Below, in pieces: positions 14,406 through 45,722 of a stretch of 64,000 nucleotides of DNA. The stretch's first letter is position 1, and every line of letters begins with the position of its first letter. A program made the position numbers and the translations under genes. A model generated the notes under the pieces. The model saw nothing but the letters and a program-made list of their open reading frames with translations, did not search any database and was not told where the DNA came from. The stretch is from positions 1 through 64,000 of IMG/VR virus record IMGVR_UViG_3300042914_003272; one strand, written 5' to 3'. Origin of the DNA: a virus. Taxonomy: Duplodnaviria; Caudoviricetes.

Positions 14406-14409
14406 ATCA

Positions 14410-22659: not shown

Positions 22660-22698
22660 TTTATGGGTCGCTACGCTCCCAACTAATTGGTGTAGTTC
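22660..22698 (+). promoter_or_regulatory. class B hairpin element
   Basis: TTTATG..GCTACGC (22670)..TGTAGTT. Confidence 0.7.
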
Positions 22699-22714
22699 AT
22701 TTGGTTATTGGTTT

Positions 22715-22984
22715 ATGTTTACAGAGTTTCTTGCTACACTTTCTGATGCTGATTTGGCGGCTGTGTTGTGGTCACTAGCTGACTATGACATAACTCCGGA
22801 TGAAGATTATCCTGAGTATCATGTTCCTGTATCTGTTCAACAATGCTCAGAGATTCTTGAGAGCAGATGGGTAACTCTTCAAGATATTGAAGAATACCTA
22901 GAGATTCGTAAACAAGCTCGGACTCAATCCGAGTTGTGGAACGACCTTATGATTGGGTCGTATGACCCATTGGTTGGGTTCTAA
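22715..22984 (+). CDS. early hypothetical protein
   Basis: Start moved to ATG 22715, downstream of class B element. Confidence 0.55.
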   Translation: MFTEFLATLSDADLAAVLWSLADYDITPDEDYPEYHVPVSVQQCSEILESRWVTLQDIEEYLEIRKQARTQSELWNDLMIGSYDPLVGF

Positions 22985-22990
22985 CTTATT

Positions 22991-23019
22991 AGGGAATGGA
23001 TAAACCATTCCCTTTTTTT
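22991..23019 (+). terminator. intrinsic terminator fused to class B element
   Basis: AGGGAATGG-ATAAA-CCATTCCCT then T-run. Confidence 0.7.
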
Positions 23020-23052
23020 ATGGTCGCTACGCGCCCTAATTGTGGCGTAGTT
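23016..23052 (+). promoter_or_regulatory. class B hairpin element
   Basis: core 23026, CGTAGTT. Confidence 0.7.
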
Positions 23053-23067
23053 AACCAAGTTAAATAT

Positions 23068-23631
23068 ATGTCTGACCCAAGGTTTGAGGTCTTATATATC
23101 CCTGAGTGGGGATGTACAAGCAAAATTAGTGTATATTTAATCGCAGTTCCCAGTTACCTGGGAGACAAGCTTTGTTCATATTTGCAGCATCACCGATGCA
23201 AGTTCCAACAGCGTTGGAGCATTCAGCGGTTAAATCGTTGCGAATTTTTTGTGGAGGAAATTCCTTCACAAGTCTTAGACGCAATTTGTGTGAGAACCCT
23301 TGCCAACCAAGGCAAGGTTAATTTAGGCGTTAACTTTCAGGTTTGCCTCAAGGCCTGCCCAGTAACAGGAGAGCAACTGCTCTCTATTAAAGTCAATGGT
23401 AAAGATATCCCCGCTAGTGGGGACGACATGGATGATTATGAGTGGTGGCTTGCTCAAAATAACTTAGACCTCAAATTAAAGCCACTCATAGAAATGGCAG
23501 TTGACTCCGCTGAGTGCGATATCGCATTCTATTACGACACTAGGGTCAACCTCAATTTAAGGGAATTACTTGAATCTTGCGGTTTCGAGTATTCTCCTGA
23601 AGAGGAGGCTATGAGATTTTGTAAGTCATAA
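23068..23631 (+). CDS. early hypothetical protein
   Basis: Start moved to ATG 23068, downstream of class B element. Confidence 0.55.
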   Translation: MSDPRFEVLYIPEWGCTSKISVYLIAVPSYLGDKLCSYLQHHRCKFQQRWSIQRLNRCEFFVEEIPSQVLDAICVRTLANQGKVNLGVNFQVCLKACPVTGEQLLSIKVNGKDIPASGDDMDDYEWWLAQNNLDLKLKPLIEMAVDSAECDIAFYYDTRVNLNLRELLESCGFEYSPEEEAMRFCKS

Positions 23632-23647
23632 GTACAGGGGCAATTGC
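23626..23647 (-). promoter_or_regulatory. class A-like element on minus strand, doubling as + strand terminator
   Basis: GGGGC-AATT-GCCCC, minus-strand TGA at 11 nt. Confidence 0.45.
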
Positions 23648-23654
23648 CCCTTTT

Positions 23655-23691
23655 TTTTATGTGGGCTACGCCCTGTCTAGTAATTGTAGTT
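23655..23691 (+). promoter_or_regulatory. class B hairpin element
   Basis: core 23665, GGGC-TAC-GCCC. Confidence 0.7.
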
Positions 23692-23716
23692 AGCAAAATA
23701 ACGGTTTATAAAAGAT

Positions 23717-24073
23717 ATGGATTACTCAGTCTTTTTCTGCTTGGTTTTAATACTTGCATTGTTTGCTTGCATGACCGCGGATATAATTCTTGACCTTGAA
23801 GTGATTTGGAGTAACGCTGGACAAGTTCAATTACCAGAGACTGAAGTTAATATAATTGAATTAGCCAAGGAACAAATGATTCCTAAGCTTCCAATCCCTG
23901 GCTCTGACCTTTGGGCAAACCTAGATGCTCAATTTGAGCAATCTAAGTGCAAGGAACTAGATTACAACTCCCTAACAGTTAGGGAACTGAAAGGTATAGC
24001 CAAACAAAGGGCTATACCCAAATATGGCAGCATGAGAAAGTCTGAGTTGATTGCAGCTTTGCAGTCACAATAA
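23717..24073 (+). CDS. membrane-anchored Rho-N/HeH-domain protein
   Basis: N-terminal hydrophobic helix; LTVRELKGIAKQRAIPKYGSMRKSELIAAL. Confidence 0.7.
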   Translation: MDYSVFFCLVLILALFACMTADIILDLEVIWSNAGQVQLPETEVNIIELAKEQMIPKLPIPGSDLWANLDAQFEQSKCKELDYNSLTVRELKGIAKQRAIPKYGSMRKSELIAALQSQ

Positions 24074-24119
24074 CTTCCTGGGGGTGAAATTCCCCCCGTT
24101 TGTCTTTCGCATGGACAAG

Positions 24120-24141
24120 GCTAACGCCTGATAGGTTTTGA
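24120..24141 (+). promoter_or_regulatory. class A hairpin element
   Basis: AGGC-TAAC-GCCT, +11nt TGA. Confidence 0.7.
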
Positions 24142-24394
24142 TGTTAGTCTTGTCTGATTATGGGGACTACAAATGCGGATACACTTGAGATATTGGAATG
24201 GGAGATACAAGAGGTAAACACGACAAAACAGAGCATCCTATAAACCAAGCTAAAATAAACCCAGTCAAAGAACCTCTTTAACAATTTAAATATTCAGTTG
24301 TCTAGACAGTGGGCTAAAACAATATAGGTAATCAGGTTTTACAACCAACTTGCAATCAGAACTTTAGAGTTCCCAACTAATTCTTTACTTTAAT

Positions 24395-24612
24395 TGAGGG
24401 TCTCTCAACCAAGTCCCGGTTTCCCAGGTAAGGCAGAACTTTAGCCCGGTGTCCTCACGATTGCTTAAAGGACTGTTTACCAAGTCTGAACTCTATCCGG
24501 CATTTCGTCTGCTAACCAAGCCTAGTTCCTCACTAGCTCTACACTTCAAAGCCTCAAGAGCCTTACATCGTGGTGGTTTGCGTCTACTCACTCGTAGTTA
24601 GTTCAACCAAGT
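24395..24612 (-). ncRNA. candidate structured ncRNA (about 220 nt)
   Basis: ORF-free, several hairpins incl. GAAA tetraloop, long-range pairings, 4x CUUGGU, sigma70-like promoter upstream. Confidence 0.45.
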
Positions 24613-24618
24613 AAATAC

Positions 24619-24648
24619 AATATAGCAGACTTTGTGGTTAAGTGACAA
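24619..24648 (-). promoter_or_regulatory. sigma70-like promoter for candidate ncRNA
   Basis: TTGTCA-18nt-TATATT with extended TG. Confidence 0.5.
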
Positions 24649-24679
24649 GTCTTGCAGCTTGTTGTTCTGGCAAAGCTAT

Positions 24680-24717
24680 TTTTATGGTCGCTACGCTCCC
24701 TATATATAGTTGTAGTT
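24680..24717 (+). promoter_or_regulatory. class B hairpin element
   Basis: core 24690. Confidence 0.7.
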
Positions 24718-24731
24718 AACGAGGTTTGGTT

Positions 24732-24911
24732 ATGAGAATCACATTTAAACTGTCAGCACTGAATCGTATTCACTTGGCTGGGAAACAAGAACTCATGAAT
24801 CTGGCAGAGTTCTACGAGGTTGAGGGCTATGAGGATATGAGCATGGAAATGCTAAGGGAAGCCCTTGAGGAGGTAAAGTCCTCATTTAATGAGGACGGTT
24901 ACAGAGAGTAA
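24732..24911 (+). CDS. small Rho-N/HeH-like acidic protein (paralog 1)
   Basis: ELMNLA..EVEGYEDMSMEMLREALEE; GAGG RBS. Confidence 0.55.
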   Translation: MRITFKLSALNRIHLAGKQELMNLAEFYEVEGYEDMSMEMLREALEEVKSSFNEDGYRE

Positions 24912-24916
24912 ACAAT

Positions 24917-24942
24917 TGGAGGGCATTGTCCCTCCTTTTTTT
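24917..24942 (+). terminator. intrinsic terminator (duplicated at 25204)
   Basis: GGAGGGCATTGTCCCTCC plus T-run. Confidence 0.75.
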
Positions 24943-24976
24943 ATGGTCGCTACGCTCCCTATATATAGATGTAGTT
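24939..24976 (+). promoter_or_regulatory. class B hairpin element
   Basis: core 24949. Confidence 0.7.
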
Positions 24977-24992
24977 AATTCAGGTATTGATT

Positions 24993-25196
24993 ATGTTGGT
25001 CTTAAGTTATTTCGATATTTATTCTTATGATTTGTCCACTCTCAGACATTTTGCAAAGCTTGACCAGATAAAGGGTTTTGAGGATATGAGTTGTGAAGAA
25101 CTCAGAGAAGCTTTGGAGGAGGAAGGTCAGAGACTCGCCAGAGAAGGTGATGAAGCCTTGTCAAAGTTTGAGGAATCAAAGGAAGTGTTTGGTTAA
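24993..25196 (+). CDS. small Rho-N/HeH-like acidic protein (paralog 2)
   Basis: TLRHFA..QIKGFEDMSCEELREALEE. Confidence 0.55.
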   Translation: MLVLSYFDIYSYDLSTLRHFAKLDQIKGFEDMSCEELREALEEEGQRLAREGDEALSKFEESKEVFG

Positions 25197-25203
25197 TTTA
25201 TTC

Positions 25204-25227
25204 TTGGAGGGCATTGTCCCTCCTTTT
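25204..25227 (+). terminator. intrinsic terminator (copy of 24917)
   Basis: Identical TTGGAGGGCATTGTCCCTCCTTTT. Confidence 0.75.
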
Positions 25228-25465
25228 CTTCTGTTGGCTTCGCACAACCCCTGAAACCAAGACTACAACTACGTTTGCAATATTAATACACTTAGTCTTT
25301 CAGATGACATTCTTCTAGTAGAAATTACAATGGATTATTTGCAGCCTATTAACTGTAATCAAGTTAATAACAACAAAATCACTGAGAAGACAGATTAAAG
25401 CAAGCTTAATCTACTTAATTTAAAGTAAACCAAATAACATTAAACCAAATTTGACAATCTCAGTA

Positions 25466-25500
25466 TGTACAAAACGCCAAAGGCTTTGTACAAAACGCCA
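25466..25500. repeat. 14-bp direct repeat TGTACAAAACGCCA x2
   Basis: Copies at 25466 and 25487. Confidence 0.85.
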
Positions 25501-26049
25501 GACCGCAACTTGCTTGACTTGTACAAAGTGACAATTGGTCAACCACTATGCTTTCAGCCCATCTAAGACCACGATTGCTTGATAGCAGCATAACATTATT
25601 TAATCTGTGTATGGCTAATCGTACAATATCATAGTGAACTCAGTCATTCTACATACCTTCTCAGTAATCCGTACAAAGATATACTTATTCCCTGCTATTT
25701 TCTAATAATTAAAATAAACTAAAATCCTTTAACAGTAACGCTTTCAATTAATACAAAATAACTTTTAAATGCCTATTTCAACCCTATCAAAATACCTTTT
25801 TAACCAACGTCTCTATTGCTACCATCAAGCAAATAAACGCTGCTCTTATATTATATATATTAGTTAATATATTATATTAATTAAATTACGCACGATATAA
25901 GAAGACTACTTTATTTGAACAGGTGTCCTATTTGCAACACACCTCCGAATATAGACAGGCTATCGCCTGGTGCGCGCAGGGAAAACTTTCACCTAAAAAC
26001 CAAAAGAATTTTAAACCAGCAAGAAAGTTTAAACTAGCTTTGTTAAAAC

Positions 26050-26123
26050 AGGCTGTTAGGGTATATAGGCTGTTAGAAAAACAGGCTGCTAGAAAAACAG
26101 GCTATTAGAAAACCAGAAGTTAG
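26050..26123. repeat. iteron-like 16-17-bp tandem repeat
   Basis: AGGCT(G/A)(T/C)TAG at 26050, 26067, 26083, 26099, degenerate at 26115. Confidence 0.8.
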
Positions 26124-26382
26124 AGGGCTAGAGGGTACACAATGCTAGAAAACCTTCTGTACTGGGTTTACCCTTGCTTTCCCACCACAGAATTTCCTTC
26201 TTTGGTCTACGCCTTTGCCTTTTCCTGGGGATAAGCTTTCCGCCGCTCGTCCTCTGATTTGCCTCTATTTTTGTGTTTTAAATGCCTTTAATATCTTTCT
26301 GGGGTATTTAGTTATTAATCCAAATCCAAGAGGCTTTAACAAGGAAAATTGAAGGGATAATCTAAAACCACTGCAAAATTTT

Positions 26383-26625
26383 ATGCAACCATTGCCTAAC
26401 CCAGTCCCTAACAACCTTCCCCACATAGCCAACCTGGTTGCCGCAGACATCTTGTACCGGAAACAGATAGGCATTCGTAAATATGGTACTCCACTACAAC
26501 CTTTCAACAACAGAAGTGCTTTACAAGACGCTTATGAAGAAGTATTAGACTTAGCTAATTATCTCAAGCAAAAATTAGAAGAAGAACGGATTAATCTTGA
26601 CAATACAGATTACCCTGATTGGTAA
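26383..26625 (+). CDS. conserved small phage protein (MazG/NTP-PPase-like helices)
   Basis: R..IG..KYGTPL...ALQDAYEEVLDLANYL. Confidence 0.5.
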   Translation: MQPLPNPVPNNLPHIANLVAADILYRKQIGIRKYGTPLQPFNNRSALQDAYEEVLDLANYLKQKLEEERINLDNTDYPDW

Positions 26626-26641
26626 GCATACAAAGTACAAG

Positions 26642-26663
26642 GCTAACGCCTTATAAGCAGTGA
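26642..26663 (+). promoter_or_regulatory. class A hairpin element
   Basis: +11nt TGA. Confidence 0.7.
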
Positions 26664-26687
26664 AGTATCAACACAACAGTGCTGTAT

Positions 26688-26909
26688 ATGTCTAAAGAAA
26701 TAACTCAGGCTGCTGTAGTTGAATTTAACAACGCTAGAAAGTTGTTATCTGAAAACAACTTTCATGCTGTCCAAATGCTGCTTAACAATGACAGATACTG
26801 GTCTGTTATCTGGAAACTTAATGGTAAATTAACTAACATTAAAATTGGTTTGACTAAAGCCAAAGCCATTAAATTAGCAGAAGCTTTGAACAAAAAATTG
26901 AAACAATAA
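26688..26909 (+). CDS. hypothetical protein
   Basis: Downstream of class A element 26642. Confidence 0.55.
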   Translation: MSKEITQAAVVEFNNARKLLSENNFHAVQMLLNNDRYWSVIWKLNGKLTNIKIGLTKAKAIKLAEALNKKLKQ

Positions 26910-26913
26910 AGAT

Positions 26914-26951
26914 TTTTATGGTCGCTACGCTCCTACTTTGTAGGTGTAATT
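26914..26951 (+). promoter_or_regulatory. class B hairpin element
   Basis: core 26924, TGTAATT. Confidence 0.7.
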
Positions 26952-26962
26952 TATGGTGGTTT

Positions 26963-27361
26963 ATGTTTAAATCCTGCAATATTTGGAGCGGTAGCTCCGA
27001 TGGATTAAGTGCAGCATTAACTAACTGCACTGAAATTGCCTTTAGAAAAGGCAAGCTAAAAAATCACTACCCTATTGTTGATAAAAATGGGGTTGTTTTC
27101 CCTGACGCTGAAACAGCCTATAAACTACATAAAACAGGTGACATTGTAAAGGATAGAGCAATAATGATTAGGATTATTGCTGCCAAGCTAAGGCAATACC
27201 CACGCCTTACTCACCACATTACCGCACGTGGTGGTATCGAGTGGCTACAGACCTGTAGTCATATAGTTGGGGTAAAAGGTTCAAGGTGGGAAGGCGTGGG
27301 TACTGAAAGTAATTTTATAAGTTGCTTAATTGCAGCTTATGAAGTTGTGGTTGATGAGTAA
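26963..27361 (+). CDS. NADAR/YbiA-like protein
   Basis: NIWS..AALTN..F.DAETAY..M..II.AKL.QYP.L..WEG.G..F..L..AYE; start moved downstream of class B element. Confidence 0.5.
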   Translation: MFKSCNIWSGSSDGLSAALTNCTEIAFRKGKLKNHYPIVDKNGVVFPDAETAYKLHKTGDIVKDRAIMIRIIAAKLRQYPRLTHHITARGGIEWLQTCSHIVGVKGSRWEGVGTESNFISCLIAAYEVVVDE

Positions 27362-27390
27362 TGAATTAGGTGGTGTAAAAGCCACCTATT

Positions 27391-27430
27391 TTTTATGGTC
27401 GCTACGCTCCTAAATTATTTAGTTGTAGTT
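27391..27430 (+). promoter_or_regulatory. class B hairpin element
   Basis: core 27401. Confidence 0.7.
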
Positions 27431-27446
27431 TATTTTGCATTAAATC

Positions 27447-27863
27447 ATGAACATCCTACGTCATAAAAACGGTTACATTGGTAATACTAAAATCGTCTAT
27501 TGTGGTAGACTTAAATCCAATAAACAATGGAAATTAGGCAATCCATTTAGCTGGAAACGGTCTCAAGCCCGTTGGTTAGTTAAAGACCTAAAAGAATGCC
27601 TTGATAAATTCAAATTGTTTACTTGGGACTTAATTAATGAGCGTTGGAATAAATTCAACCCTGAAGATATTGAATTTGCCCAACAATATTGGACTCAAAT
27701 GAAATCCTTAGCAAATCAAATTAAGCAGGGTGAGGTTGATGCCCTCACCTGTTTTTGTGGTGAATGGAAAAACTTTACTCCAGTTAAAGGTGTTCCCTAT
27801 GAATGCCATACCCAAATATTATATGCAGCTTGCTTGTATATGATTGAAAAAGAAATTGTCTAA
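27447..27863 (+). CDS. DUF4326-like protein
   Basis: VYCGR..LGNPF..LTCFC..CH motifs. Confidence 0.6.
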   Translation: MNILRHKNGYIGNTKIVYCGRLKSNKQWKLGNPFSWKRSQARWLVKDLKECLDKFKLFTWDLINERWNKFNPEDIEFAQQYWTQMKSLANQIKQGEVDALTCFCGEWKNFTPVKGVPYECHTQILYAACLYMIEKEIV

Positions 27864-27887
27864 CCTGTTGGCGTTAGCAAGTACAAG

Positions 27888-27909
27888 GCTAACGCCTAAT
27901 TACTTTTGG
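27888..27909 (+). promoter_or_regulatory. class A hairpin element
   Basis: +11nt TGG. Confidence 0.65.
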
Positions 27910-27937
27910 TGGAAATTAACTAATCGGAGAAAAAGAA

Positions 27938-28159
27938 ATGACCAACTTAAATTTACCAGAAGAAATGACTTATTACTTTACGGAATGGAAGTCCGGTAAT
28001 CCTTATTTTGGAAAGTTTAAATCTAAAGATTACTGCGTAAATGGAAGATTAGAATACGAGAAAATATCTCAGTCTTTGGGATTTAAAATTAAAATTCAGC
28101 CTTTAAAAGATGAAAACTTGATAGAAAGGTTGAATCGTGAAGGGAACTTTTTTATCTAG
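27938..28159 (+). CDS. hypothetical protein
   Basis: GGAG RBS, class A upstream. Confidence 0.55.
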   Translation: MTNLNLPEEMTYYFTEWKSGNPYFGKFKSKDYCVNGRLEYEKISQSLGFKIKIQPLKDENLIERLNREGNFFI

Positions 28160-28178
28160 GCTTAATCGAATAAAGGTT

Positions 28179-28218
28179 TTTATGGGAGGCTACGCCTCCC
28201 TTTTTTTTGTTTGTAGTT
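28179..28218 (+). promoter_or_regulatory. class B hairpin element
   Basis: GGGAGGC-TAC-GCCTCCC, core 28189. Confidence 0.7.
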
Positions 28219-28243
28219 TTAGTTAATTTAATTAAAGTTTATC

Positions 28244-28699
28244 ATGGCTTACACAACAGTTCAAGTTTCAGAATTAGCTTGCAATATCTTTTCTCAATGG
28301 GCTATTAAGTCCGTTAGTACACTAAATTTGCAACAGCTAGACTCTAATGTTTTTAAATGGGTTTTTTGGAAAGGTGGGGAGATTAAATCCATTACTTTGT
28401 TGGTTAAAGGTAGTACAAAAACTATTGAGAATCTTTACTTTCAAAAAGCTAAGTTTGGTAAAGGGTTAATTCTTGAAATGCCCAAGCATGATAGTGTAAC
28501 CCATGTTCTTTGGGTTGATGTTAATAATGGTGACAGTGCTTTAGCTTCACTTGTTAACCTTTCAGTCTTATTGCAGTCTAAAACAGATGCTGATGATTTC
28601 AACTCATTCAAAACTCCTGACGGCAACGTTCATGTAGTCCCATTAGACTATCTTGAGTGCGAAAACATAGGCGTTAAAAGACGTAATCTTTTAGCTTAA
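28244..28699 (+). CDS. early hypothetical protein
   Basis: Class B upstream, terminator downstream. Confidence 0.55.
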   Translation: MAYTTVQVSELACNIFSQWAIKSVSTLNLQQLDSNVFKWVFWKGGEIKSITLLVKGSTKTIENLYFQKAKFGKGLILEMPKHDSVTHVLWVDVNNGDSALASLVNLSVLLQSKTDADDFNSFKTPDGNVHVVPLDYLECENIGVKRRNLLA

Positions 28700-28739
28700 T
28701 ACTCAATTTTTACCCATTGGTTTAATCCGGTGGGTGTTT

Positions 28740-28778
28740 TTTTATGTGCGCTACGCGTATTAATTTTAGTTTGTAGTT
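28740..28778 (+). promoter_or_regulatory. class B hairpin element
   Basis: core 28750. Confidence 0.7.
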
Positions 28779-28802
28779 TTAGTTAATTGTTTGGAGTTTG
28801 CT

Positions 28803-29042
28803 ATGGTTTTCCAAATTAAAGTTGAGAATTTTTACTCTGCTATTTTGGCATTACAGATGAACGAGTATTTAGATATGATTGAGTATTTTAATTTCGGCTA
28901 CGCAACAAAAGACAGAAGTGAAGTCGAAGAATGTATCCCGCCATGGGATATGGCTTTAGAGCTAGTAGACAGGGGATATCGTGTTTCAGACCTTTACAAT
29001 GAAGGGTATAAATACATCCCCCAATATTGCCCTCTAGGTTAA
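28803..29042 (+). CDS. early hypothetical protein
   Basis: GGAG RBS before ATG 28803. Confidence 0.55.
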   Translation: MVFQIKVENFYSAILALQMNEYLDMIEYFNFGYATKDRSEVEECIPPWDMALELVDRGYRVSDLYNEGYKYIPQYCPLG

Positions 29043-29076
29043 TTTCAATTTAAGACCAGTGTAAAAGCTGGTCTTT

Positions 29077-29113
29077 TTTTATGTGCGCTACGCATCTTGA
29101 TTTAGTTGTAGTT
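29077..29113 (+). promoter_or_regulatory. class B hairpin element
   Basis: core 29087. Confidence 0.7.
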
Positions 29114-29134
29114 TAATTAGTTGTTCGAGGTTTT

Positions 29135-29380
29135 ATGATTCAAATAACTGTGATTTCCGAAGCCAATGCTTATGCAGAAGGCTCAGAAAGGAACTGGGTT
29201 AGAAGAGAATATTATATTGAGTCCAGTGGACCTATCCCAAATAAAGATTATTTATGGGAACACCTGGAAAAGCTAAAAAAAGAAGGTAAAGTCCATTATA
29301 AATGGGCTTTGCCTCAAGACATACTCCTATTTGATGATGGGACGGCTGTGTTTACCCCTTATTTGGGAAGCATGGATTAG
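29135..29380 (+). CDS. early hypothetical protein
   Basis: GAGG RBS, class B upstream. Confidence 0.55.
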   Translation: MIQITVISEANAYAEGSERNWVRREYYIESSGPIPNKDYLWEHLEKLKKEGKVHYKWALPQDILLFDDGTAVFTPYLGSMD

Positions 29381-29410
29381 ATATATAGAGAGGGTTTAAT
29401 GCCCTCTTTT

Positions 29411-29449
29411 TTTTATGGACGCTACGCGCCCTACTAGTTTTGTGTAGTT
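29411..29449 (+). promoter_or_regulatory. class B hairpin element
   Basis: core 29421. Confidence 0.7.
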
Positions 29450-29535
29450 AAGTGGACGCACTTTGGGTAATTCTAGATAGCCCCTACAACGACTGTATCT
29501 AGCTCAATTTATTAGCAAAATAATCGGAGTCTGTT

Positions 29536-30396
29536 ATGTCAGTCAAGCCTGAAATCACAGTTACTTGCTTGAAAGAATCTCGCCAGTATCAAGGGGCTAA
29601 ATGCCCTATTGGTACATTCATTGTCCGTCTATACTGGAAAGATTATTCCAAGTATGTTAGAAACGAACGAAAACTTGACGGTGTTTATTTGTTAAAGGAT
29701 TCCAAAAATATTTACCACAGAACTTGTGAATTTGCCGTTACATCTTTACAGTCTTTAGAATACCTTTTGTCCAATTGCGATAAAGCTGGTGGTATCAAAG
29801 GCAAATGGTTTCAAAGACAAACAGAGTACGCTGTAATGAAGTTCCGTGGCTTTGCTCAGACTGCATACGAATTTGTCAAGCCCATTAAAGTTGCAGTAAC
29901 TCAAGTTAAGCAAACTGTTTCCAAGGTAGCTCAATCCGTTTTCCGCAGATTTGACCCACGCCAACCTCAATCATTTGCCAAGTGCTTCACCCTTGAGCAA
30001 GCCAAATATTTGTTCGACCGTTGCCCTGAGTCTCAACGTACTCAGAAGTTTATTGACAATTATTTGGCAACTTGTGAACGCATAGCTGCTGTTCCCCAAG
30101 TTGTTTCCATAGACGATATTGCTCCTGCATTGGTTGAACAACATTCAGAAGTTCTTGAGCATATCCCAGCTACGGACTCTCAAGTTAGACAAATGATGGC
30201 TGATGGCTACAAAGCTAACGCCAGACGTTGTAAGCAATGGGTAATCGGCGTTGGTAGGTCTATTCCTGATTTTCAAGTAATTGTCAAGGGGACTGACAAG
30301 CGCAATGCTGAAAAAATAATGCAGCAAGTAATTGAAAATATTCTGCTTGCAGAGTTGTCAGTGTCACAATTACGTGATATCATTGCAGCAAGTTAG
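29536..30396 (+). CDS. hypothetical protein
   Basis: 286 aa, GGAG RBS. Confidence 0.65.
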   Translation: MSVKPEITVTCLKESRQYQGAKCPIGTFIVRLYWKDYSKYVRNERKLDGVYLLKDSKNIYHRTCEFAVTSLQSLEYLLSNCDKAGGIKGKWFQRQTEYAVMKFRGFAQTAYEFVKPIKVAVTQVKQTVSKVAQSVFRRFDPRQPQSFAKCFTLEQAKYLFDRCPESQRTQKFIDNYLATCERIAAVPQVVSIDDIAPALVEQHSEVLEHIPATDSQVRQMMADGYKANARRCKQWVIGVGRSIPDFQVIVKGTDKRNAEKIMQQVIENILLAELSVSQLRDIIAAS

Positions 30397-30454
30397 GTGG
30401 TGTTCCCTAGCCTGACCTGATGACTACCACTGGGGATTATCCTCCCCACTTTCC

Positions 30455-30490
30455 CCAGTGGTACAGGGGCGACTGCCCCATTAGAATTGA
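30455..30490 (+). promoter_or_regulatory. class A hairpin element (possibly bidirectional)
   Basis: GGGGC-GACT-GCCCC, TGA on plus, TGG on minus. Confidence 0.65.
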
Positions 30491-30595
30491 AGTATTAGCA
30501 AAATAAAAGGAGTTTCTCATGGAACGTGGTTCAGGTAGATAATTGACTGGAAGCACCCTATTCCTAGTGTTTTTATACTAAGAATAGGGGGCAAG

Positions 30596-30617
30596 GCTAA
30601 CGCCTAATTAGTTGTGA
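30596..30617 (+). promoter_or_regulatory. class A hairpin element
   Basis: +11nt TGA. Confidence 0.7.
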
Positions 30618-30643
30618 AGTAAAATAAATTTGGAGAATATGTT

Positions 30644-30820
30644 ATGCGTAATTATGTCTTTGCCATTCCAGGCAATGTTGGGTACGAGTATATCAAAGCC
30701 TCTAATCTAAAAGAGGCAGAAGATATTGCGAATGAAATATGCCGCAATCACTCCTTTTTAGGAGGGGCGGTGCAGCCTCTGGTGACGGAAGTAGGAAAAT
30801 CCTACGCTGACTCGAAATAG
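30644..30820 (+). CDS. small hypothetical protein (58 aa, not in track)
   Basis: GGAG RBS, class A element 30596 upstream. Confidence 0.5.
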   Translation: MRNYVFAIPGNVGYEYIKASNLKEAEDIANEICRNHSFLGGAVQPLVTEVGKSYADSK

Positions 30821-30821
30821 T

Positions 30822-30860
30822 TTTTATGGGGGCTACGCCCCTATTTGGTTTGTTGTAATT
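30822..30860 (+). promoter_or_regulatory. class B hairpin element
   Basis: GGGGC-TAC-GCCCC, core 30832. Confidence 0.7.
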
Positions 30861-30884
30861 TAAGTAGATTGATTGGAGTTTGTT

Positions 30885-31190
30885 ATGGAATTAATTAAAT
30901 CTGACAAAATTGAAATGGGTGTTTGTTTAATTGATATTTATCGCGCAAGCGGCGATTTATATAGTAGCTATGACATCGTTAAGCAATCAGAAGATGGTAG
31001 CTTTCCAAGGCTGCCAGACGCAAGGTATGGAGTTGACCAACCTGATTACGATGATGAAGACCTATCTGATGTTCGACGTAAACCTATCAATATTGAAATC
31101 CTGAATGAAACATTTGATAGAAATGGTTGGACTGTTAGAGAAGAATCAGTTATTGGTGATGGCAAAGTTCTTTGTCATAGACAGTATTAA
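30885..31190 (+). CDS. early hypothetical protein
   Basis: GGAG RBS before ATG 30885. Confidence 0.55.
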   Translation: MELIKSDKIEMGVCLIDIYRASGDLYSSYDIVKQSEDGSFPRLPDARYGVDQPDYDDEDLSDVRRKPINIEILNETFDRNGWTVREESVIGDGKVLCHRQY

Positions 31191-31196
31191 ATAAAT

Positions 31197-31235
31197 TTTA
31201 TTAGGGGCTACGCCCCTATTTAGTTTGTTGTAGTT
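31197..31235 (+). promoter_or_regulatory. class B hairpin element
   Basis: TAGGGGC-TAC-GCCCCTA, core 31207. Confidence 0.7.
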
Positions 31236-31258
31236 TAAGTAAATTGATTGGAGGAATT

Positions 31259-31501
31259 ATGTCTATTCAAGAAGCGATTGTTAAATCTGGTTTAACAGTT
31301 AGACTCTTTGCAGACTGCTGGGACGGAAGTGTTGCTGGACACGCAGAAGAGCCAGCCACAGGAACAGAATGGAAAGTAGTGCCAGGAACTCGCACCGAAG
31401 CGGGTAGGTATTATCAGGAAGTCAGAATGACTGAAGTTAATCCAAATCATCCTATCCTTCTCAACCTTCCAGAAAATTGCTATATAGATGGTGGGTTTTA
31501 A
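31259..31501 (+). CDS. early hypothetical protein
   Basis: GGAGG RBS before ATG 31259. Confidence 0.55.
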   Translation: MSIQEAIVKSGLTVRLFADCWDGSVAGHAEEPATGTEWKVVPGTRTEAGRYYQEVRMTEVNPNHPILLNLPENCYIDGGF

Positions 31502-31595
31502 TGATTTAGTTTAATCTTTTGGCGGCATAATAGCCCCTATTCCTAGTGTTTTTATACTAAGAATAGGGGGCAAGGCTTGCTGATTCAAAATAGTT

Positions 31596-31634
31596 TTTTA
31601 TGGGGGCTACGCCCCTATTTAGTTTAATGTAGTT
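31596..31634 (+). promoter_or_regulatory. class B hairpin element
   Basis: core 31606. Confidence 0.7.
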
Positions 31635-32218: not shown

Positions 32219-33379
32219 ATGATAGCTATTCAAATAAAAACCAAGGTTGGGCGGTGTGAGTCGTGCCACAAATTTCGTAATAACATGGAGTGGCAAGTAG
32301 AGAGTAGAGTAGTTTGCATTGACTGCTTTAAAATGCTCAAAAACCAAAAGCTAATAGATGAAGTAGTTAAACGAGTTGAGAAGGTTGAAGTAGATACAAC
32401 TAAAACAGGCAAAAAAGTTAAAGAAGATAAGCCTAAAAGAGAAATAACCAACTATAGACAGACAGTATTAAACCACCTAAAAAACACTGATAAACCTTTA
32501 TCTGTCAGAGAGATGTATGCAGATAGAGTATCAAGTAAAGTCACCCTGGAAAGATGGTTGAAAGTCTTACTGGCAAGTGGTGAAATAGTAACTATGAAGT
32601 CTACAGCCAGAGCCTATTACATAGATGCTGATAGAAAAGATTTACTTGATGAGTATATAGAAAGTCTTAAACCAAAGAAAAAGACAACTTTACCTGATGA
32701 AATATTAAAAAGATTAAAAAGTTTATCACGTCCATCTACTGCATCCCAAATTAATGAGGAGAAAACTTGGGTCAAAAAGTCTGTTTATACTGCACTAGTT
32801 AAGTTGGTCGAAACTGAAAAAGTTGTTTTTATTAAGCTCAATAAAGTTAAAAAAATCTATATTGACACTGACAGAAAACATTTACTTGATGAATTTAACC
32901 AATATAAGAAGGTAGATGTTTTAGGTGGAAACAGAAAAAAAGCCTTAGATTTTATTAATTCAAATAATAGAGTTACTTATATAAAAGATTTAACTAATGT
33001 ATTAAGGGCGGATAAAAGTACATCTTTAAGGGTGGTTCATGAACTCATAGAATTAGGGTTAGTTAAATGCGCGAAGGGTAGAAGACACAATGCCGCTTTG
33101 GTTATTGTGCCAATCAATAATGAACATCTACTTGAACAATTTGAATTTGTAACTTACGACTCAACAGAAAATATATTAAGAAGGTTTATGGAAGAAGGTA
33201 ATGCGGTAACATTAGACCAGTGTTATTTTGTTGTTGGCTGCAAGTCTGGTAGTGGTGGGACTAGAAGATATGTTCGGAGGCTTTTAAAAGAATGGAAGTG
33301 TGAAATATCTGAACTAAATGGAGTTAAAACTTACCGTTTACCTTGCCTCTATCCTCTTTCTGACCCCAGCAGCTTGTAA
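32219..33379 (+). CDS. multi winged-helix DNA-binding protein
   Basis: N-terminal Cys pairs; repeated wHTH-like units ending YID.DRK.LLDE. Confidence 0.55.
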   Translation: MIAIQIKTKVGRCESCHKFRNNMEWQVESRVVCIDCFKMLKNQKLIDEVVKRVEKVEVDTTKTGKKVKEDKPKREITNYRQTVLNHLKNTDKPLSVREMYADRVSSKVTLERWLKVLLASGEIVTMKSTARAYYIDADRKDLLDEYIESLKPKKKTTLPDEILKRLKSLSRPSTASQINEEKTWVKKSVYTALVKLVETEKVVFIKLNKVKKIYIDTDRKHLLDEFNQYKKVDVLGGNRKKALDFINSNNRVTYIKDLTNVLRADKSTSLRVVHELIELGLVKCAKGRRHNAALVIVPINNEHLLEQFEFVTYDSTENILRRFMEEGNAVTLDQCYFVVGCKSGSGGTRRYVRRLLKEWKCEISELNGVKTYRLPCLYPLSDPSSL

Positions 33380-34849: not shown

Positions 34850-34861
34850 TGGTTAGTAGTA

Positions 34862-34897
34862 TCATAAATAAAGGGGTTAACACCCCAGTAGCAGTGA
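34862..34897. promoter_or_regulatory. class A hairpin element, bidirectional (terL / phosphatase)
   Basis: GGGGT-TAAC-ACCCC compensatory stem, TGA at 11 nt on both strands. Confidence 0.7.
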
Positions 34898-34915
34898 TGT
34901 AGTTAAAAGATTAAA

Positions 34916-36098: not shown

Positions 36099-36136
36099 AG
36101 TTTAGTTTTAGTCTTATAAAGTATTATATTTGTAAG

Positions 36137-36158
36137 GCTAACGCCTTAATAATGGTGA
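36137..36158 (+). promoter_or_regulatory. class A hairpin element
   Basis: +11nt TGA. Confidence 0.7.
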
Positions 36159-38075: not shown

Positions 38076-38078
38076 TTC

Positions 38079-40196: not shown

Positions 40197-40201
40197 AATT
40201 A

Positions 40202-42040: not shown

Positions 42041-42041
42041 A

Positions 42042-42668: not shown

Positions 42669-43648
42669 AAGCTTCTTAGACTCCCTAACAAAGATATCTG
42701 CCAATCAGCAAATTCATTATACGCATAGAATGTAGTAGCAATGGATTTCGTATGAGGGTGATTTTCACTTAGTAGAGTATTTGCATTTAATTTAGGAGAA
42801 TGAGATTGATAAAGTTGTTCTACAGCTTCAGCTACAAATAAAGGTATTTCTAAGCTGGTTACTTGATAAGTCTGGTATATTGAAGTGATATCTCCTGACT
42901 TAATTTTGTATCTTAATCCTGATGTAATCTCAATTACTTTACCCCACTTAACGCAGGATTCTTTTATAGATACAAAATCACCGACTTTAAATTCTAAGTT
43001 ATTAGGCTTAGGTGGTTTAATCTCAGGATTAATCATCTCAGCGTAAGCTCTTTTAATATCTGATGTAGTGGGAGTTTCATTGCATTGTTCTAAAGCTTTA
43101 CGCCACACATTAGCTCTTAACTCTACATCTTTTATTTGTCCTAATAATCTAAGAACGTAATCTGTTTTAGGAAGCAAGGTATCATCATCAAAGTAAATGC
43201 GAATACTTTCACAATCTTGATATGCCTTAATAGCTCTACTTGCAGTAGTAGGATTAATGCCTAAACCTAACTGACAATAAGACTGCCAACTATTGTATTG
43301 TTCACGGTAGAGTCTTCTTTGTTTGAGGGTATGTAAGTCTCTGCCTGTGTCTATAAAAAACCTTTTTGTGTTCTCTATAATTCTTGTTTCTAATTTTTGT
43401 TTTAATTCCTTATCTTCATCAGCCAACGGAGCTACAGGTTTACTTTTGTTCCCATCATTAAGAAGTGATTGAAACCAACTCCACTCTTCGTTAGATATAT
43501 TTTCTCTAACCCTAGAAGTTATCTTAGCTAAATGAGTTTCTTCCAACTCTGACAGTTCCGTGATAACCGATTTAGCTAAGTCTGTATTCCTATTAACAAT
43601 AGCTATTCCCAAGCTGTTGCTCAGTTCCGTAGATTTATTTAGTTCCAT
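42659..43648 (-). CDS. putative DNA-binding protein with KOW-like C-terminal domain
   Basis: G.DL..LK..RLYR..Y.SW..YC helix motif; FKVGDFVSI..WGKVIEI. Confidence 0.5.
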   Translation of the reverse strand: MELNKSTELSNSLGIAIVNRNTDLAKSVITELSELEETHLAKITSRVRENISNEEWSWFQSLLNDGNKSKPVAPLADEDKELKQKLETRIIENTKRFFIDTGRDLHTLKQRRLYREQYNSWQSYCQLGLGINPTTASRAIKAYQDCESIRIYFDDDTLLPKTDYVLRLLGQIKDVELRANVWRKALEQCNETPTTSDIKRAYAEMINPEIKPPKPNNLEFKVGDFVSIKESCVKWGKVIEITSGLRYKIKSGDITSIYQTYQVTSLEIPLFVAEAVEQLYQSHSPKLNANTLLSENHPHTKSIATTFYAYNEFADWQISLLGSLRSLCQ

Positions 43649-43719
43649 TGTCTAACCAACCACTGTTTATTTTGCTTGCTCTATGGTATAATATATTCGG
43701 CAAAATAAACAGGTGAGTT

Positions 43720-43854: not shown

Positions 43855-43858
43855 ACCA

Positions 43859-43894
43859 TCAAAAGTATAGGGGCGATTGCCCCATTAATAGTGA
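43859..43894. promoter_or_regulatory. class A hairpin element, bidirectional
   Basis: GGGGC-GATT-GCCCC, TGA at 11 nt on both strands. Confidence 0.7.
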
Positions 43895-43913
43895 AGTAAT
43901 TTGTGAAGTAATT

Positions 43914-44210
43914 ATGACTGAGGAAAATGAAGTTAGGGTATTTAGTAATGGCAGTCAATATAGTGACTGGACTGCAAGTAATTGTGATAGATGCAAAAAA
44001 GCAGCACCCCTTTATGAAGATTCTACCTGCCCTATTGAGTTAGCACTTTGTGAGGCATTGTTATCTTGCGGTAAAGTTACTCAAGAGATTGCAAATAGAA
44101 TGGGGTATGTAGACCAAGGAAAGGATGTTTGGATGTGCAAGGAAGTCGAGTGGACAGAGGAATGGAAGTCTGAAGTCTTAGCAAGGAAAGATGCCAAAGT
44201 CAAATCTTGA
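43914..44210 (+). CDS. Cys-containing hypothetical protein
   Basis: FSNGSQY..W...NCDRC..CPI; class A upstream. Confidence 0.55.
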   Translation: MTEENEVRVFSNGSQYSDWTASNCDRCKKAAPLYEDSTCPIELALCEALLSCGKVTQEIANRMGYVDQGKDVWMCKEVEWTEEWKSEVLARKDAKVKS

Positions 44211-44541
44211 ATTAAAGTTTGAAGAACTATGGCTTACTCTTTATCCTAGCATTGATTTAATAAATGAGTTTAAGCCTGTTCCTAAACGCAGATTTAGGGC
44301 AGACTATGCTCATATTAACTCTAAGGTTCTCATAGAAATCAATGGTGGTACTTGGGGTAAAGGTGGGCATAGTAGCGGAGGTGGGATAGAAAGAGATTAT
44401 ATAAAAAATAACCTTTGCCTTTACTATGGTTATGTCACATTTCAGTTATCAAATAAAATGATAACTGAAGAGTGGTTAAATATAATAGCCGACACCATTA
44501 GAGGTAGAGAGGCTTTTAATCTTGATTATCTCAAGTCCTAG
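44191..44541 (+). CDS. PD-(D/E)xK endonuclease (Vsr/DUF559-like)
   Basis: EF..RRFRADYA..KVLIEINGG..H..RD..K.N. Confidence 0.75.
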   Translation: MPKSNLELKFEELWLTLYPSIDLINEFKPVPKRRFRADYAHINSKVLIEINGGTWGKGGHSSGGGIERDYIKNNLCLYYGYVTFQLSNKMITEEWLNIIADTIRGREAFNLDYLKS

Positions 44542-44542
44542 T

Positions 44543-45031
44543 TTATTTATCCAAACTACTCATAACAGTAGTGAACCCGCTATATTTTCCTTGATAGGGA
44601 ATAGTGGGTTTTTCTGTTGAATGAATGATTAGCTGACCTATTCTCAATTCTGGGTAGATAAACACTGGTTTTTTTGTGGAGTAATTCTTTAATTCCAAAG
44701 TCAATACTCCATGAAATCCGTTATCTACCCAACCTGCTAATGCGTGAGACAATCCTTCTCTAGCTCTAGAAGATTTTAACTTTAACTCTATAGCAACATT
44801 ATTTGGAACTGTTAAATATTCTAGAGTTTCTGCCAGCACAAATTCATTAGCATCTAAGATGTAGGGATTTTCTTTTGTGTGATGAGAAATGTTTACAATT
44901 TCATTATCAATAATTAGATTATTCCCTAACCTAATATCTAAGGAAGATGGATTAATTAAAGATTCATCATAGGGTTTAACAAGTCCTTTCTTACAAAGAG
45001 ATTTGATTTGATGGTCAACTAATACTGTCAT
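44543..45031 (-). CDS. dcd: dCTP deaminase
   Basis: NPSSLDIRLG, KSSRAREGL, AGWVDNGFHGVLTLELKN, IGQL, Y.GKY. Confidence 0.9.
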   Translation of the reverse strand: MTVLVDHQIKSLCKKGLVKPYDESLINPSSLDIRLGNNLIIDNEIVNISHHTKENPYILDANEFVLAETLEYLTVPNNVAIELKLKSSRAREGLSHALAGWVDNGFHGVLTLELKNYSTKKPVFIYPELRIGQLIIHSTEKPTIPYQGKYSGFTTVMSSLDK

Positions 45032-45096
45032 GGTAAACTTAGTTTATTTTGCTTGCTTTAAATAATAACATAACTCAGGTTTAAACTAAAGAAGGT

Positions 45097-45134
45097 TTTT
45101 ATGGACGCTACGCGTCCTAGTTATAGTTTTAGTT
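45097..45134 (+). promoter_or_regulatory. class B hairpin element (degenerate downstream box)
   Basis: GGACGC-TAC-GCGTCC, core 45107. Confidence 0.6.
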
Positions 45135-45177
45135 CCTTCGGAGTTAGTATTCTTTTGGGATTAGGAGTAAAGAGTTT

Positions 45178-45216
45178 TTTATGGGGTGCTACGCACCTAT
45201 TTTTGTAGTTGTAGTT
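45178..45216 (+). promoter_or_regulatory. class B hairpin element
   Basis: GGTGC-TAC-GCACC, core 45188. Confidence 0.7.
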
Positions 45217-45245
45217 TTAGTTTTGAATTAAGTTGGAGGGGAATT

Positions 45246-45623
45246 ATGCTGGATAGAATTGCTTTAAATCTAATTTCTTGTGGGTACATTTTTGTCAAAG
45301 AGTCCTGTGGGAAGTATTATGGCTACCCAGAAGACCTCCGTTGGTTCGGACATGGTGAAGCTATTTACGCTTTACCTCTACTCGATTTTCCTCAGATTGA
45401 GGATGAAGAAAATTATGTAATGCCTGAAGAGGGTATCACCGACCCTTATTGGGTAAGAAAGAATGGTGAGGATACTTATTCTTATACATCTTCCAGGATA
45501 TACGAATCGAGCATTCCCGTTCTTTCCGAAGAAGGCGAACCTATTTACGCAGTTAGACGGGAACTGATGTCCCTGGAATCTCAGTTTATCGCTGAGGTTT
45601 GGCAAAGGGATGTACAAGGCTAA
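45246..45623 (+). CDS. early hypothetical protein
   Basis: GGAGG RBS before ATG 45246; class B upstream. Confidence 0.55.
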   Translation: MLDRIALNLISCGYIFVKESCGKYYGYPEDLRWFGHGEAIYALPLLDFPQIEDEENYVMPEEGITDPYWVRKNGEDTYSYTSSRIYESSIPVLSEEGEPIYAVRRELMSLESQFIAEVWQRDVQG

Positions 45624-45640
45624 CGCCTAAATAGGATTGA
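45619..45640 (+). promoter_or_regulatory. class A hairpin element
   Basis: +11nt TGA. Confidence 0.7.
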
Positions 45641-45685
45641 ACTAACTCACTTCAATTTGACTTAGGTTGAATTGAAGTGAGTTAT

Positions 45686-45722
45686 TTTTATGTGGGCTAC
45701 GCGTTTTTGTGGAGTTGTAGTT
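45686..45722 (+). promoter_or_regulatory. class B hairpin element
   Basis: core 45696. Confidence 0.65.

Follow-up and report, generated by a model that had tools for sequence, protein, structure and literature searches.

Class B elements in the genome of a lake cyanophage

The DNA analyzed here (the window, 64,000 nt) is the first 64 kb of IMG/VR record IMGVR_UViG_3300042914_003272, a 75-kb virus genome estimated to be 99% complete. The genome is that of an uncultured, S-EIV1-like cyanophage with a QDE-1/YonO-like two-barrel RNA polymerase and is not N4-like. The portal is similar to the one in Synechococcus phage S-EIV1 (37.7% identity, E 4e-106), and the sequencing runs that contain this DNA are labelled as lake-water metagenomes. 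The plus strand carries small open reading frames (ORFs) and replication genes, including those for a UvrD-like helicase and SSB; the DnaB gene lies on the minus strand. We focus on a repeated element with an invariant core, here called class B, that precedes the small ORFs and the operon of the 803-amino-acid (803-aa) RNA polymerase, and on its relation to a second, tetraloop element, class A.

The core heptamer of class B, GCTACGC, occurs 19 times in the window (18 copies on the plus strand and one on the minus strand), where 1.36 are expected; a count of at least 19 was reached in none of 100 shuffles. The rest of the 75,163-bp genome adds a single further copy, on the minus strand. One plus-strand match lies within an ORF, with neither a T-run before it nor a box after it, and is no element (Table 1). 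The true class B elements number 17, of which 14 form a first cluster (22.66-31.63 kb) and 3 a second (45.10-45.72 kb). Each begins with a T-run closing in ATG(G), which is followed by 3-4 variable nucleotides, the invariant GCTACGC, and another 3-4 nucleotides, in many cases complementary to the earlier ones; beyond a T-rich spacer stands the box YGTARTT, 18-21 nt from the loop centre. The spacer from core to box is 13 nt long in four copies, 14 in five, 15 in six, and 16 in two. A search with the full pattern, TTTTAT[GT]-N2-4-GCTACGC-N8-17-[GT]TA[GA]TT, returned 17 copies on the plus strand, the same 17 in the window as in the whole genome, with none on the minus strand and no match in 200 first-order Markov simulations. 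The pattern scan confirms the counts and coordinates of the preliminary description, which was made from the sequence alone and reported a tripartite element in clusters of 14 and 3 on the plus strand.

Class B elements are placed like promoters

All 17 elements are intergenic and run in the same direction as the genes that follow. A candidate start codon (of an ORF of at least 40 aa) lies 8-86 nt past the first box in 16 of the 17, and within 35 nt in 15; the exception is the copy at 45107 (element 15). Since the T-run of 8/17 elements also closes an intrinsic-terminator hairpin, the layout is one of terminator, element, short leader, and gene. Terminator-like sites are enriched in the region (33 found, 8.4 expected).

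Sigma70-like sites show no such enrichment, with 23 found at 22-33.5 kb and 32.3 expected. The sites listed by the sigma70 scans (-35 and -10 boxes separated by 16-18 nt, A(-11), T(-7)) include none of the 17 elements. The base after TAGTT, the would-be T(-7), is A in 18, T in 15, G in 11, and C in 2 of 46 cases, showing no T bias, and in element 6 (core at 26924) GGTGG stands between the box and an ATG that lies only 11 nt beyond it. Because this ATG is so close and the T bias is missing, the box cannot be a -10 hexamer, and transcription therefore probably starts at or next to the box. Of the original proposal that these are early promoters for small host-takeover genes, the promoter part is borne out by the one-way, intergenic arrangement, the start codons after the box, and the position of many copies behind terminators, while the words 'early' and 'host-takeover' remain suggestions.

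The template strand carries a mini-hairpin motif

On the minus strand, the complement of the core is GCGTAGC in 17/17 copies, and in 62/62 copies across five genomes, matching the consensus GCGNAGC. Among the 64 possible GCNNNGC loops, GNA alone forms a mini-hairpin (review by Kimoto and Hirao, PMC13037366); the loop on the plus strand, TAC, is not among the loops that do. The melting temperature of d(GCGNAGC) with N=T is 70 C, that of d(GCGTTAGC) is 69.5 C, and that of GCTTTTGC is 33 C, values measured on oligonucleotides (PMC13037366). The class A core, GCTAACGC, has GCGTTAGC itself as its complement, so that the complements of class B and class A fit the mini-hairpins d(GCGNAGC) and d(GCGNNAGC), respectively. 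Both classes place the G..A loop ends on the transcribed strand, for which we put the chance, by our own post hoc estimate for a named strand, at about 1 in 256. The core complement is indeed, as first proposed, the stable d(GCGNAGC) mini-hairpin motif, the class to which the N4 early promoters belong. As for the N4-type triloop, C-GTA-G is found on the template strand in every copy; the loop is GTA, whereas N4 has GGA or GAA.

The outer stems were also said to covary. The named stems are present (GGAG/CTCC, GGAC/GTCC, GGGT/ACC, and GGGG/CCCC), and in this phage the first flanking position is Watson-Crick paired in 10/17 copies (shuffle P 0.002) and the third in 14/17 (P 0.005). We extended the comparison to 62 elements (41 distinct) from this phage and its relatives G001-G004. 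In this set 82.1% of the pairing cells are paired compared to 75.5% after shuffling, and the covariation score is 0.262 compared to 0.174; each value was reached in 0/500 shuffles, and controls with slid registers gave 36-60% pairing. Double changes are found in four of the six stem pairs, and all four Watson-Crick types occur at the first flanking position; at one corresponding array site, the stem is GGAG/CTCC here and GGGA/TCCC in G004. These results show covariation across the set, but not in every copy. Each of the two inner positions is unpaired in 16/41 distinct rows, which counts against a uniform stem. Most of the rows with unpaired inner positions belong to the GGTC..TCCC group, where C.T and T.C on the plus strand correspond to tandem G.A on the minus strand. 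Counting the two core pairs, the stem has at least 5 pairs in about half of the copies and 2-4 in the rest. Nearest-neighbour DNA folding hardly separates the strands, with 0 to -7.8 kcal/mol for the template and 0 to -7.7 kcal/mol for the non-template strand.

The phage encodes a two-barrel RNA polymerase

The gene downstream of the second class B cluster encodes the 803-aa protein, our candidate reader of the elements. An AlphaFold model built from a 30-sequence alignment has a predicted local distance difference test (pLDDT) score of 85.7, and its top Foldseek matches are QDE-1 (2j7n_A, E 1.9e-15, probability 1.00, template-modelling score about 0.5) and plant RDR2; relatives of P23-45-type gp64, gp96, and crAss gp66 are matched as well. 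The aspartates D420, D422, and D424 of the metal-binding DxDGD motif are invariant in 30 homologues, and with this motif and its double-psi barrels the protein belongs to the two-barrel enzymes. It has no Pfam match at E 1e-3, although its homologue P0042 carries PF05183, and a phmmer search against PDB sequences gave only two chance-level matches. Neither a tblastn search with the polymerase (at E 1e-3) nor a megablast search with the 22-34 kb region found a match in 50,697 GenBank phage records.

Scans of 121 ORF translations (21 + 61 + 20 by Pfam, 19 by PHROGs) revealed neither a T7/N4-type polymerase domain (PF00940 and others) nor a sigma factor. A scan for DxDxD, as the mark of a second polymerase in the structural genes, gave only low-complexity acidic runs, and a tRNA scan found none. 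The 46 polymerase-homologous loci found in species genomes are all, to judge by the record titles, in cyanobacterial assemblies, most of them filamentous.

Hairpin boxes at some loci with related polymerases

Class B elements stand at corresponding places in the close relatives G001 (14 copies), G003 (15), and G004 (14), whose polymerases are 86-98% identical, and in the fragment G002 (3). Beyond this group the full element is not found: an IMG/VR scan for TTTTTATGNNNGCTACGC gave 64 loci, of which the 24 with a downstream box all come from five related contigs, and 38 of the other 40 are single matches in unrelated contigs without a box. In the more distant genome G005 (complete with terminal repeats; polymerase 46% identical), class A is present in 20 copies on one strand and none on the other. 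Candidate replacements for class B in that genome, the frequent words CTTGTAAT and TTTATTAA, proved to be scattered within genes.

At some distant loci, with polymerases only 25-30% identical, we found hairpin boxes followed about 10 nt later by TGATG, in the form GCT(N1-2)CGC-N~10-TGATG. The box is GCTATCGC in 13 copies at locus L048, where an ATG-ORF of at least 40 aa begins within 90 nt in 12/13; it is GCTTCGC, the complement of the archetypal GCGAAGC, at L076 (9/13 by the same measure) and L085 (11/14). At L059 GCTTCGC and GCTACGC occur side by side (8/13), and at L061 the loop letters of GCT-NN-CGC vary among AG, AA, TT, TA, AT, GG, and GA (14/18). Over these five loci, 54/71 boxes have such an ORF, with the ATG usually about 31 nt past the core. 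In 50 polymerase-bearing sources, loops of the type T..C, which read G..A on the template, make up 174/443 occurrences of 'GC-loop-GC then TGA', where 1/16 is expected. S-EIV1, which has a related portal and no polymerase match, shows no motif enrichment and no strand bias. Given that the loop ends G..A are fixed while the middle letters vary, the conserved feature is the two loop ends that form a sheared G.A pair in DNA and not the letters of an RNA loop.

Comparison with known hairpin promoters

In phage N4, the early promoters P1-P3 are used by the virion RNA polymerase, and the transcript starts 11 nt from the loop centre (PMC4496689). Like P1-P3, class B has a GC-rich heptamer between inverted repeats ahead of genes that, in N4, are early genes, and on the template strand could form a hairpin with a G-N-A loop of 3 nt that is closed by C-G and would owe its stability to a sheared G:A pair (PMC4496689, PMC13037366). 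The differences are several. The N4 heptamer is GCGGAGC (PMC13037366), and the N4 enzyme is a T7-like single-subunit polymerase of 3,500 aa, of which no counterpart is detectable in the scanned ORFs of this phage. N4 has three copies at one genome end, compared to 17 in two clusters here; class B adds a T-run/ATGG block and the YGTARTT box, which is absent from N4; and class B stems comprise 2 to 7 pairs, while an N4-type promoter should have a stem of 5-7 bp and a purine in the middle of its loop. An N4-type promoter should also depend on supercoiling and on a single-strand-binding protein; an SSB gene is present in this phage (Table 1).

In Pseudomonas phage LUZ7, ONT-cappable-seq has mapped hairpin promoters of two classes, early ones with a 3-nt loop (9 mapped) and middle ones with a 3-4-nt loop, and their transcripts start at a G 13-15 nt downstream of the hairpin, with the measured start 13-14 nt from the loop centre (PMC9163698). 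These two classes parallel the triloop of class B and the tetraloop of class A, as well as the TG of their boxes. In LUZ7, however, both polymerases are T7-like and the starts are measured, whereas those of class B are deduced and its box lies further out. Class B resembles the N4/LUZ7 hairpin promoter but does not belong with it: no T7-like polymerase was found in the scanned ORFs, and class B has a GTA loop, additional conserved blocks, and a wider spacing.

To judge from sequence comparison, a DNA-hairpin promoter is here most likely used by an enzyme of another polymerase superfamily. In the literature searched, hairpin promoters have so far been described only for T7-like enzymes of N4-like phages, and little is on record about the promoters that single-chain two-barrel phage polymerases use. 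The YonO promoter was left open (PMC5467207). The crAss-like phage phi14:2 enzyme gp66 transcribes single-stranded DNA efficiently, and no common early promoter motif was found (bioRxiv 10.1101/2020.03.07.982082). For P23-45 gp96/gp64, two motifs, one AT-rich and one GC-rich, were reported for two temporal classes, and the word 'hairpin' is not used (bioRxiv 10.1101/2022.12.01.518664). Judging from the structural model, YonO, gp66, and P23-45 gp96/gp64 share the fold class of the 803-aa protein; only one polymerase gene was found here. The preference of gp66 for single strands, its missing early motif, and the open question of the YonO promoter all fit a hairpin-promoter mechanism. Our literature search found no paper containing GCTAACGC, GGCTAACGCC, or GCTACGC and no description of a cyanophage with a YonO/QDE-1-like two-barrel polymerase; it found GCGTTAGC only in the mini-hairpin review and GCGTAGC only in three unrelated fungal papers.

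A proposed template-strand hairpin promoter and its alternatives

We favor, with a confidence only a little better than even, the view that class B elements are phage-specific promoters heading small, probably early, cassettes and the polymerase operon, and that they form a clade-specific triloop subclass of template-strand mini-hairpin promoters read by the 803-aa polymerase. In such a mechanism, the minus strand would, where the DNA is negatively supercoiled or transiently single-stranded, fold GCGTAGC into a GNA mini-hairpin of two G-C pairs and a sheared G.A pair, lengthened in most copies by 2-4 flanking pairs. The upstream T-run/ATGG block and the hairpin would together position the two-barrel polymerase, a class of enzyme with a preference for single-stranded templates. 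RNA would start at or next to the G of YGTARTT, 18-21 nt from the loop centre; for class A and for the distant relatives, initiation at the TG of the corresponding boxes would put this distance at about 16 nt and about 15 nt, respectively. Some, though not all, loci with this polymerase family share the wider design of hairpin plus box.

A broader proposal, which we rate as less likely than not, is that DNA-hairpin promoters are the native start signal of the QDE-1/YonO-like polymerases of cyanophages and cyanobacterial mobile elements, and that a single virion-delivered enzyme reads class B early and class A on the replication genes, with timing set by loop size, T-run, and initiator box. Because the polymerase gene lies behind class A and class B elements only, some polymerase probably arrives with the virion, which is speculative, or the host enzyme reads one of the classes. 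If confirmed, the pairing of element and polymerase would supply a promoter/polymerase pair from a new enzyme class and would mean that recognition of template-strand GNA mini-hairpins arose convergently in two unrelated polymerase superfamilies; it would fit the single-stranded DNA preference of crAss gp66 and QDE-1, and it would allow the early and middle genes of a widespread group of lake cyanophages to be annotated. Since an invariant element short enough for easy synthesis lies beside an expressible 803-aa polymerase, the question is open to in vitro work without phage culture.

Several observations weigh against promoter recognition by the 803-aa enzyme. Stems are poor in 6/17 copies: the five copies with GGTC..TCCC or GGTC..TCCT have two inner mismatches, and the copy at 45696 is nearly stemless. 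Twenty-six stem cells are G.T on the plus strand and become A.C mismatches on the template strand, and 6/17 template-strand hairpins come out at -0.8 kcal/mol or weaker in the nearest-neighbour DNA model, which has no term for GNA loops. The distance from hairpin to box varies (13-16 nt of spacer) and is longer than in N4 or LUZ7. G005 has the polymerase and class A but not a single class B element, which shows that class B is dispensable for the polymerase family and could be read by some other factor. Under a strict definition of the box, only 8/51 sources hold at least 5 hairpin boxes on one strand, an uneven distribution. The polymerase gene itself is preceded by class A and class B elements, so that the first supply of the enzyme must be assumed. 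Taken together with the T-rich tail, seven of the 17 class B hairpins pass the terminator scan and ten do not. The RNA data consist of assembled contigs from two metatranscriptome runs that cover parts of the region, and cannot show 5' ends; one contig starts at 31640, 6 nt past the element 14 box, and another carries 12 unmatched letters ending in GTGATGAC ahead of 27002, each a weak hint at best.

Class B could instead be a double-stranded early promoter for the host RNA polymerase, directed by an unusual host sigma factor or a phage redirecting factor, with the phage enzyme reading class A only, as in the T7 scheme. A polymerase gene downstream of class B, preceded by intergenic DNA devoid of sigma70-like sites, is what a host-read early promoter predicts, and G005 keeps precisely the polymerase and class A. 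At 803 aa, moreover, the protein has the size of non-virion enzymes like YonO (~100 kDa), whereas the gp64-family Foldseek targets have 592-595 residues. But no -10/-35 geometry fits the element, where TTTATG and TAGTT are about 25 nt apart; the would-be T(-7) is spread over A, T, and G as counted above; a 7-nt core that is invariant in all 62 copies is unlike a -35 box; and sigma70-like sites are under-represented in the region. Pfam found no sigma or known redirecting factor in the scanned ORFs, and the TATAAT-type promoters elsewhere in the genome look different. We consider this explanation unlikely, and grant it the weight we do mainly because only class A and class B precede the polymerase gene.

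It is quite unlikely that the element acts in RNA, as a read-through stem-loop serving as terminator or attenuator, processing site, or stabilizer. The terminator-like scores of seven hairpins and the 26 stem cells that are G.U-compatible on the plus strand would suit such a role, and the RNA minimum-energy fold contains the local hairpin in 9/17 copies. A canonical terminator already precedes 8/17 copies, however, making a second one redundant; special stability is undocumented for UAC and UAAC loops in the literature searched; in the relatives the middle of the loop changes but the G..A of the opposite strand is kept; and the five GGTC..TCCC/TCCT copies fold weakly or not at all. The variant proposed at the outset, a conformational switch in which GCUACG pairs with UGUAGU of the box, did not hold up: this pairing appears in the RNA minimum-energy fold of 6/17 copies but has no covariation support, as the core is invariant and no compensating change accompanies the boxes GTAATT and TTAGTT, in which the pairing is lost.

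We consider it very unlikely that the hairpins are single-strand priming signals or recombination sites and not transcription signals. The idea comes from the mini-hairpins of phage G4-type origins and from DNA polymerase D, which is also a two-barrel enzyme. In its favor, mini-hairpins have been linked to primase sites (PMC13037366), both element classes lie almost wholly on one strand, Pfam recognized no DNA polymerase or primase in the scanned ORFs, and homology breakpoints cluster at class B. Against it, a link to gene starts, as seen for 54/71 distant boxes and 15/17 class B elements (within 35 nt), would not be expected of priming sites; the elements are scarce among the minus-strand structural genes, where two head small plus-strand ORFs; and breakpoints at repeats are expected from homology alone.

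Probable exchange of gene cassettes at class B elements

In alignments with G001, G003, and G004, 15/38 homology breakpoints (endpoints that are not fully independent) fall within 60 nt of a class B core, where 15.5% are expected (P 3e-4). Metagenome contigs join across cassettes, from 29071 to 29405, from 30823 to 31588, and from 24203 to 30820, and the cassette at 29087-29421, at element 10, is absent from G001 and from metagenome contigs. In our reading of these sequences, class B elements also mark the places where gene cassettes are gained and lost and, as repeated terminator-promoter joints, would act as crossover points; the breakpoints thus reveal the way in which early-gene cassettes are exchanged among such phages. 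T4-type phages have similar PeSL cassettes, in that joints of a repeated stem-loop and an early promoter lie between small variable ORFs and allow modular shuffling (PMC2839356, PMC4122927). In class B the promoter part would be a phage-specific hairpin. PeSLs, in contrast, reportedly carry host sigma70 early promoters.

Several features adjoin the elements near 45 kb. Between element 15 and the T-run of element 16 lie about 40 nt including CCTTCGG (45135-45175). This stretch, a possible small RNA, is kept in G001, G003, and G004. The hairpin with a 19-bp stem and T-run that precedes element 17 is duplicated (45643-45684 and 46214-46255) together with the class A element before it; next to the second copy, on its 3' side, stands TTTTTATGTT, which lacks the GCTACGC core and is a decayed class B element. 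A 10-bp hairpin with a T-rich tail (46284-46322) stands just 5' of the polymerase start codon and could be an attenuator.

Other promoter-like motifs and gene content

Class A has the form (ACA)AG-GCTAACGC-CTnAnTAGTnGTGA; its flanks covary, and its TGA keeps a set position at +19 to +21. It is more abundant than class B, with 31 copies of GCTAACGC on the plus strand and 4 on the minus strand, and heads replication-type genes on the plus strand. Elements are scarce in the 33 kb of minus-strand structural genes; those at 5587 and 36137 there head small plus-strand ORFs.

A further motif, (T)AGCAAAATAAAC, occurs 12-18 nt 5' of start codons, among them those of the UvrD-like helicase, DnaB, and dCTP-deaminase genes. 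Several copies follow a TATAAT-like box by about 7 nt (e.g., 32175 and 43680), and these sites look like host-type promoters with a conserved short leader. Boxes resembling TAT(A/G)(A/T)(T/C)AC, such as AATTATACCAC and AATTATATCAC, lie 5' of several minus-strand (late) genes and may be late promoters for the host polymerase. With class B on the small ORFs and the polymerase operon, class A on replication genes, and the late minus-strand genes carrying neither, a three-stage programme is plausible.

Table 1 Positions of the elements, boxes, and genes discussed in the text (core, GCTACGC; box, YGTARTT)
Feature	Position	Strand	Details
Class B element 1	22658..22697	+	T-run, GGTC-GCTACGC-TCCC, 14 nt, TGTAGTT; ATG 17 nt past box
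Class B element 2	23013..23052	+	GGTC-core-GCCC, 13 nt, CGTAGTT; terminator hairpin 22991-23013 adjoins
Class B element 3	23651..23691	+	GTGG-core-CCTG; terminator 23636-23651 adjoins; AGCAAAATAA leader motif directly 3'
Class B element 4	24679..24717	+	GGTC-core-TCCC
Class B element 5	24936..24976	+	GGTC-core-TCCC; terminator 24918-24935 adjoins
Class B element 6	26913..26951	+	GGTC-core-TCCT, box TGTAATT; ATG 11 nt past box
Class B element 7	27389..27430	+	GGTC-core-TCCT; terminator 27367-27388 adjoins; heads DUF4326 ORF
Class B element 8	28177..28218	+	Perfect stem GGGAGG-CTA-CCTCCC; also scores as terminator-like
Class B element 9	28737..28778	+	GTGC-core-GTAT; terminator 28711-28736 adjoins
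Class B element 10	29074..29113	+	GTGC-core-ATCT; terminator 29052-29075 adjoins
Class B element 11	29407..29449	+	GGAC-core-GCCC; terminator 29387-29409 adjoins; long leader of 86 nt
Class B element 12	30821..30860	+	GGGG-core-CCCT, box TGTAATT
Class B element 13	31196..31235	+	Upstream box in TTTTATTAGGG variant
Class B element 14	31594..31634	+	GGGG-core-CCCT
Class B element 15	45096..45134	+	Perfect stem GGAC/GTCC, box TTTAGTT; runs into element 16 without intervening ORF
Class B element 16	45175..45216	+	GGGT-core-ACCT; three TAGTT boxes in tandem
Class B element 17	45685..45722	+	GTGG-core-GTTT, nearly stemless; hairpin with 19-bp stem, 45643-45684, adjoins
Chance GCTACGC	28897..28903	+	Within ORF; no T-run, no downstream box
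Class A, window	5587, 22200, 24120, 26642, 27888, 30596, 36137, 45619, 45931, 46190, 54634, 54973, 56307, 59492, 59882, 60738		
Class A, genome beyond window	65220-71335		
(T)AGCAAAATAAAC	13937, 23692, 29514, 30497, 32194, 57104, 58841	+	
(T)AGCAAAATAAAC	43676, 45053, 63021	-	
Late-gene boxes	5549-5600, 7190-7240, 34849-34900, 36098-36140, 43648-43690		5' of minus-strand genes
HNH endonuclease and neighbour ORF	13977-14901	+	PF13392, E 4.7e-14; inside minus-strand structural block; AGCAAAATAA motif heads the pair
Major head protein	15268-16386	-	
Portal	19103-21301	-	
Terminase	33338-34849	-	
Two-barrel RNA polymerase	46356..48767	+	803 aa; GRDTDGDF at residue 420; candidate reader of elements
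SSB	56319-57032		PF00436

Directly after the polymerase gene, at 48968-54622 on the plus strand, lies the longest ORF of the genome, which encodes a Q/N/S/T-rich protein of 1,884 aa. It has no Pfam, PHROG, or PDB match (the phmmer search against PDB sequences returned none), contains six [SN]RTA[GN] motifs, and has a hydrophobic C-terminal stretch resembling a membrane helix; its homologues share contigs with polymerase homologues. The protein may belong to the virion or to the ejection machinery, or may be a polyprotein that is cleaved at repeated sites.

Despite the genes for DnaB, a UvrD-like helicase, and SSB, a DNA polymerase or primase domain was not recognized by Pfam in the scanned ORFs; the annotation of S-EIV1 lists both a primase and a DNA polymerase of family A. 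The 75-kb genome also strongly avoids some restriction-type sites, with only 2 copies of GATC, 6 of GGCC, and 0 of GCGATCGC, which we take to be the highly iterated palindrome typical of cyanobacteria; the relative G005 has 41 copies of it.

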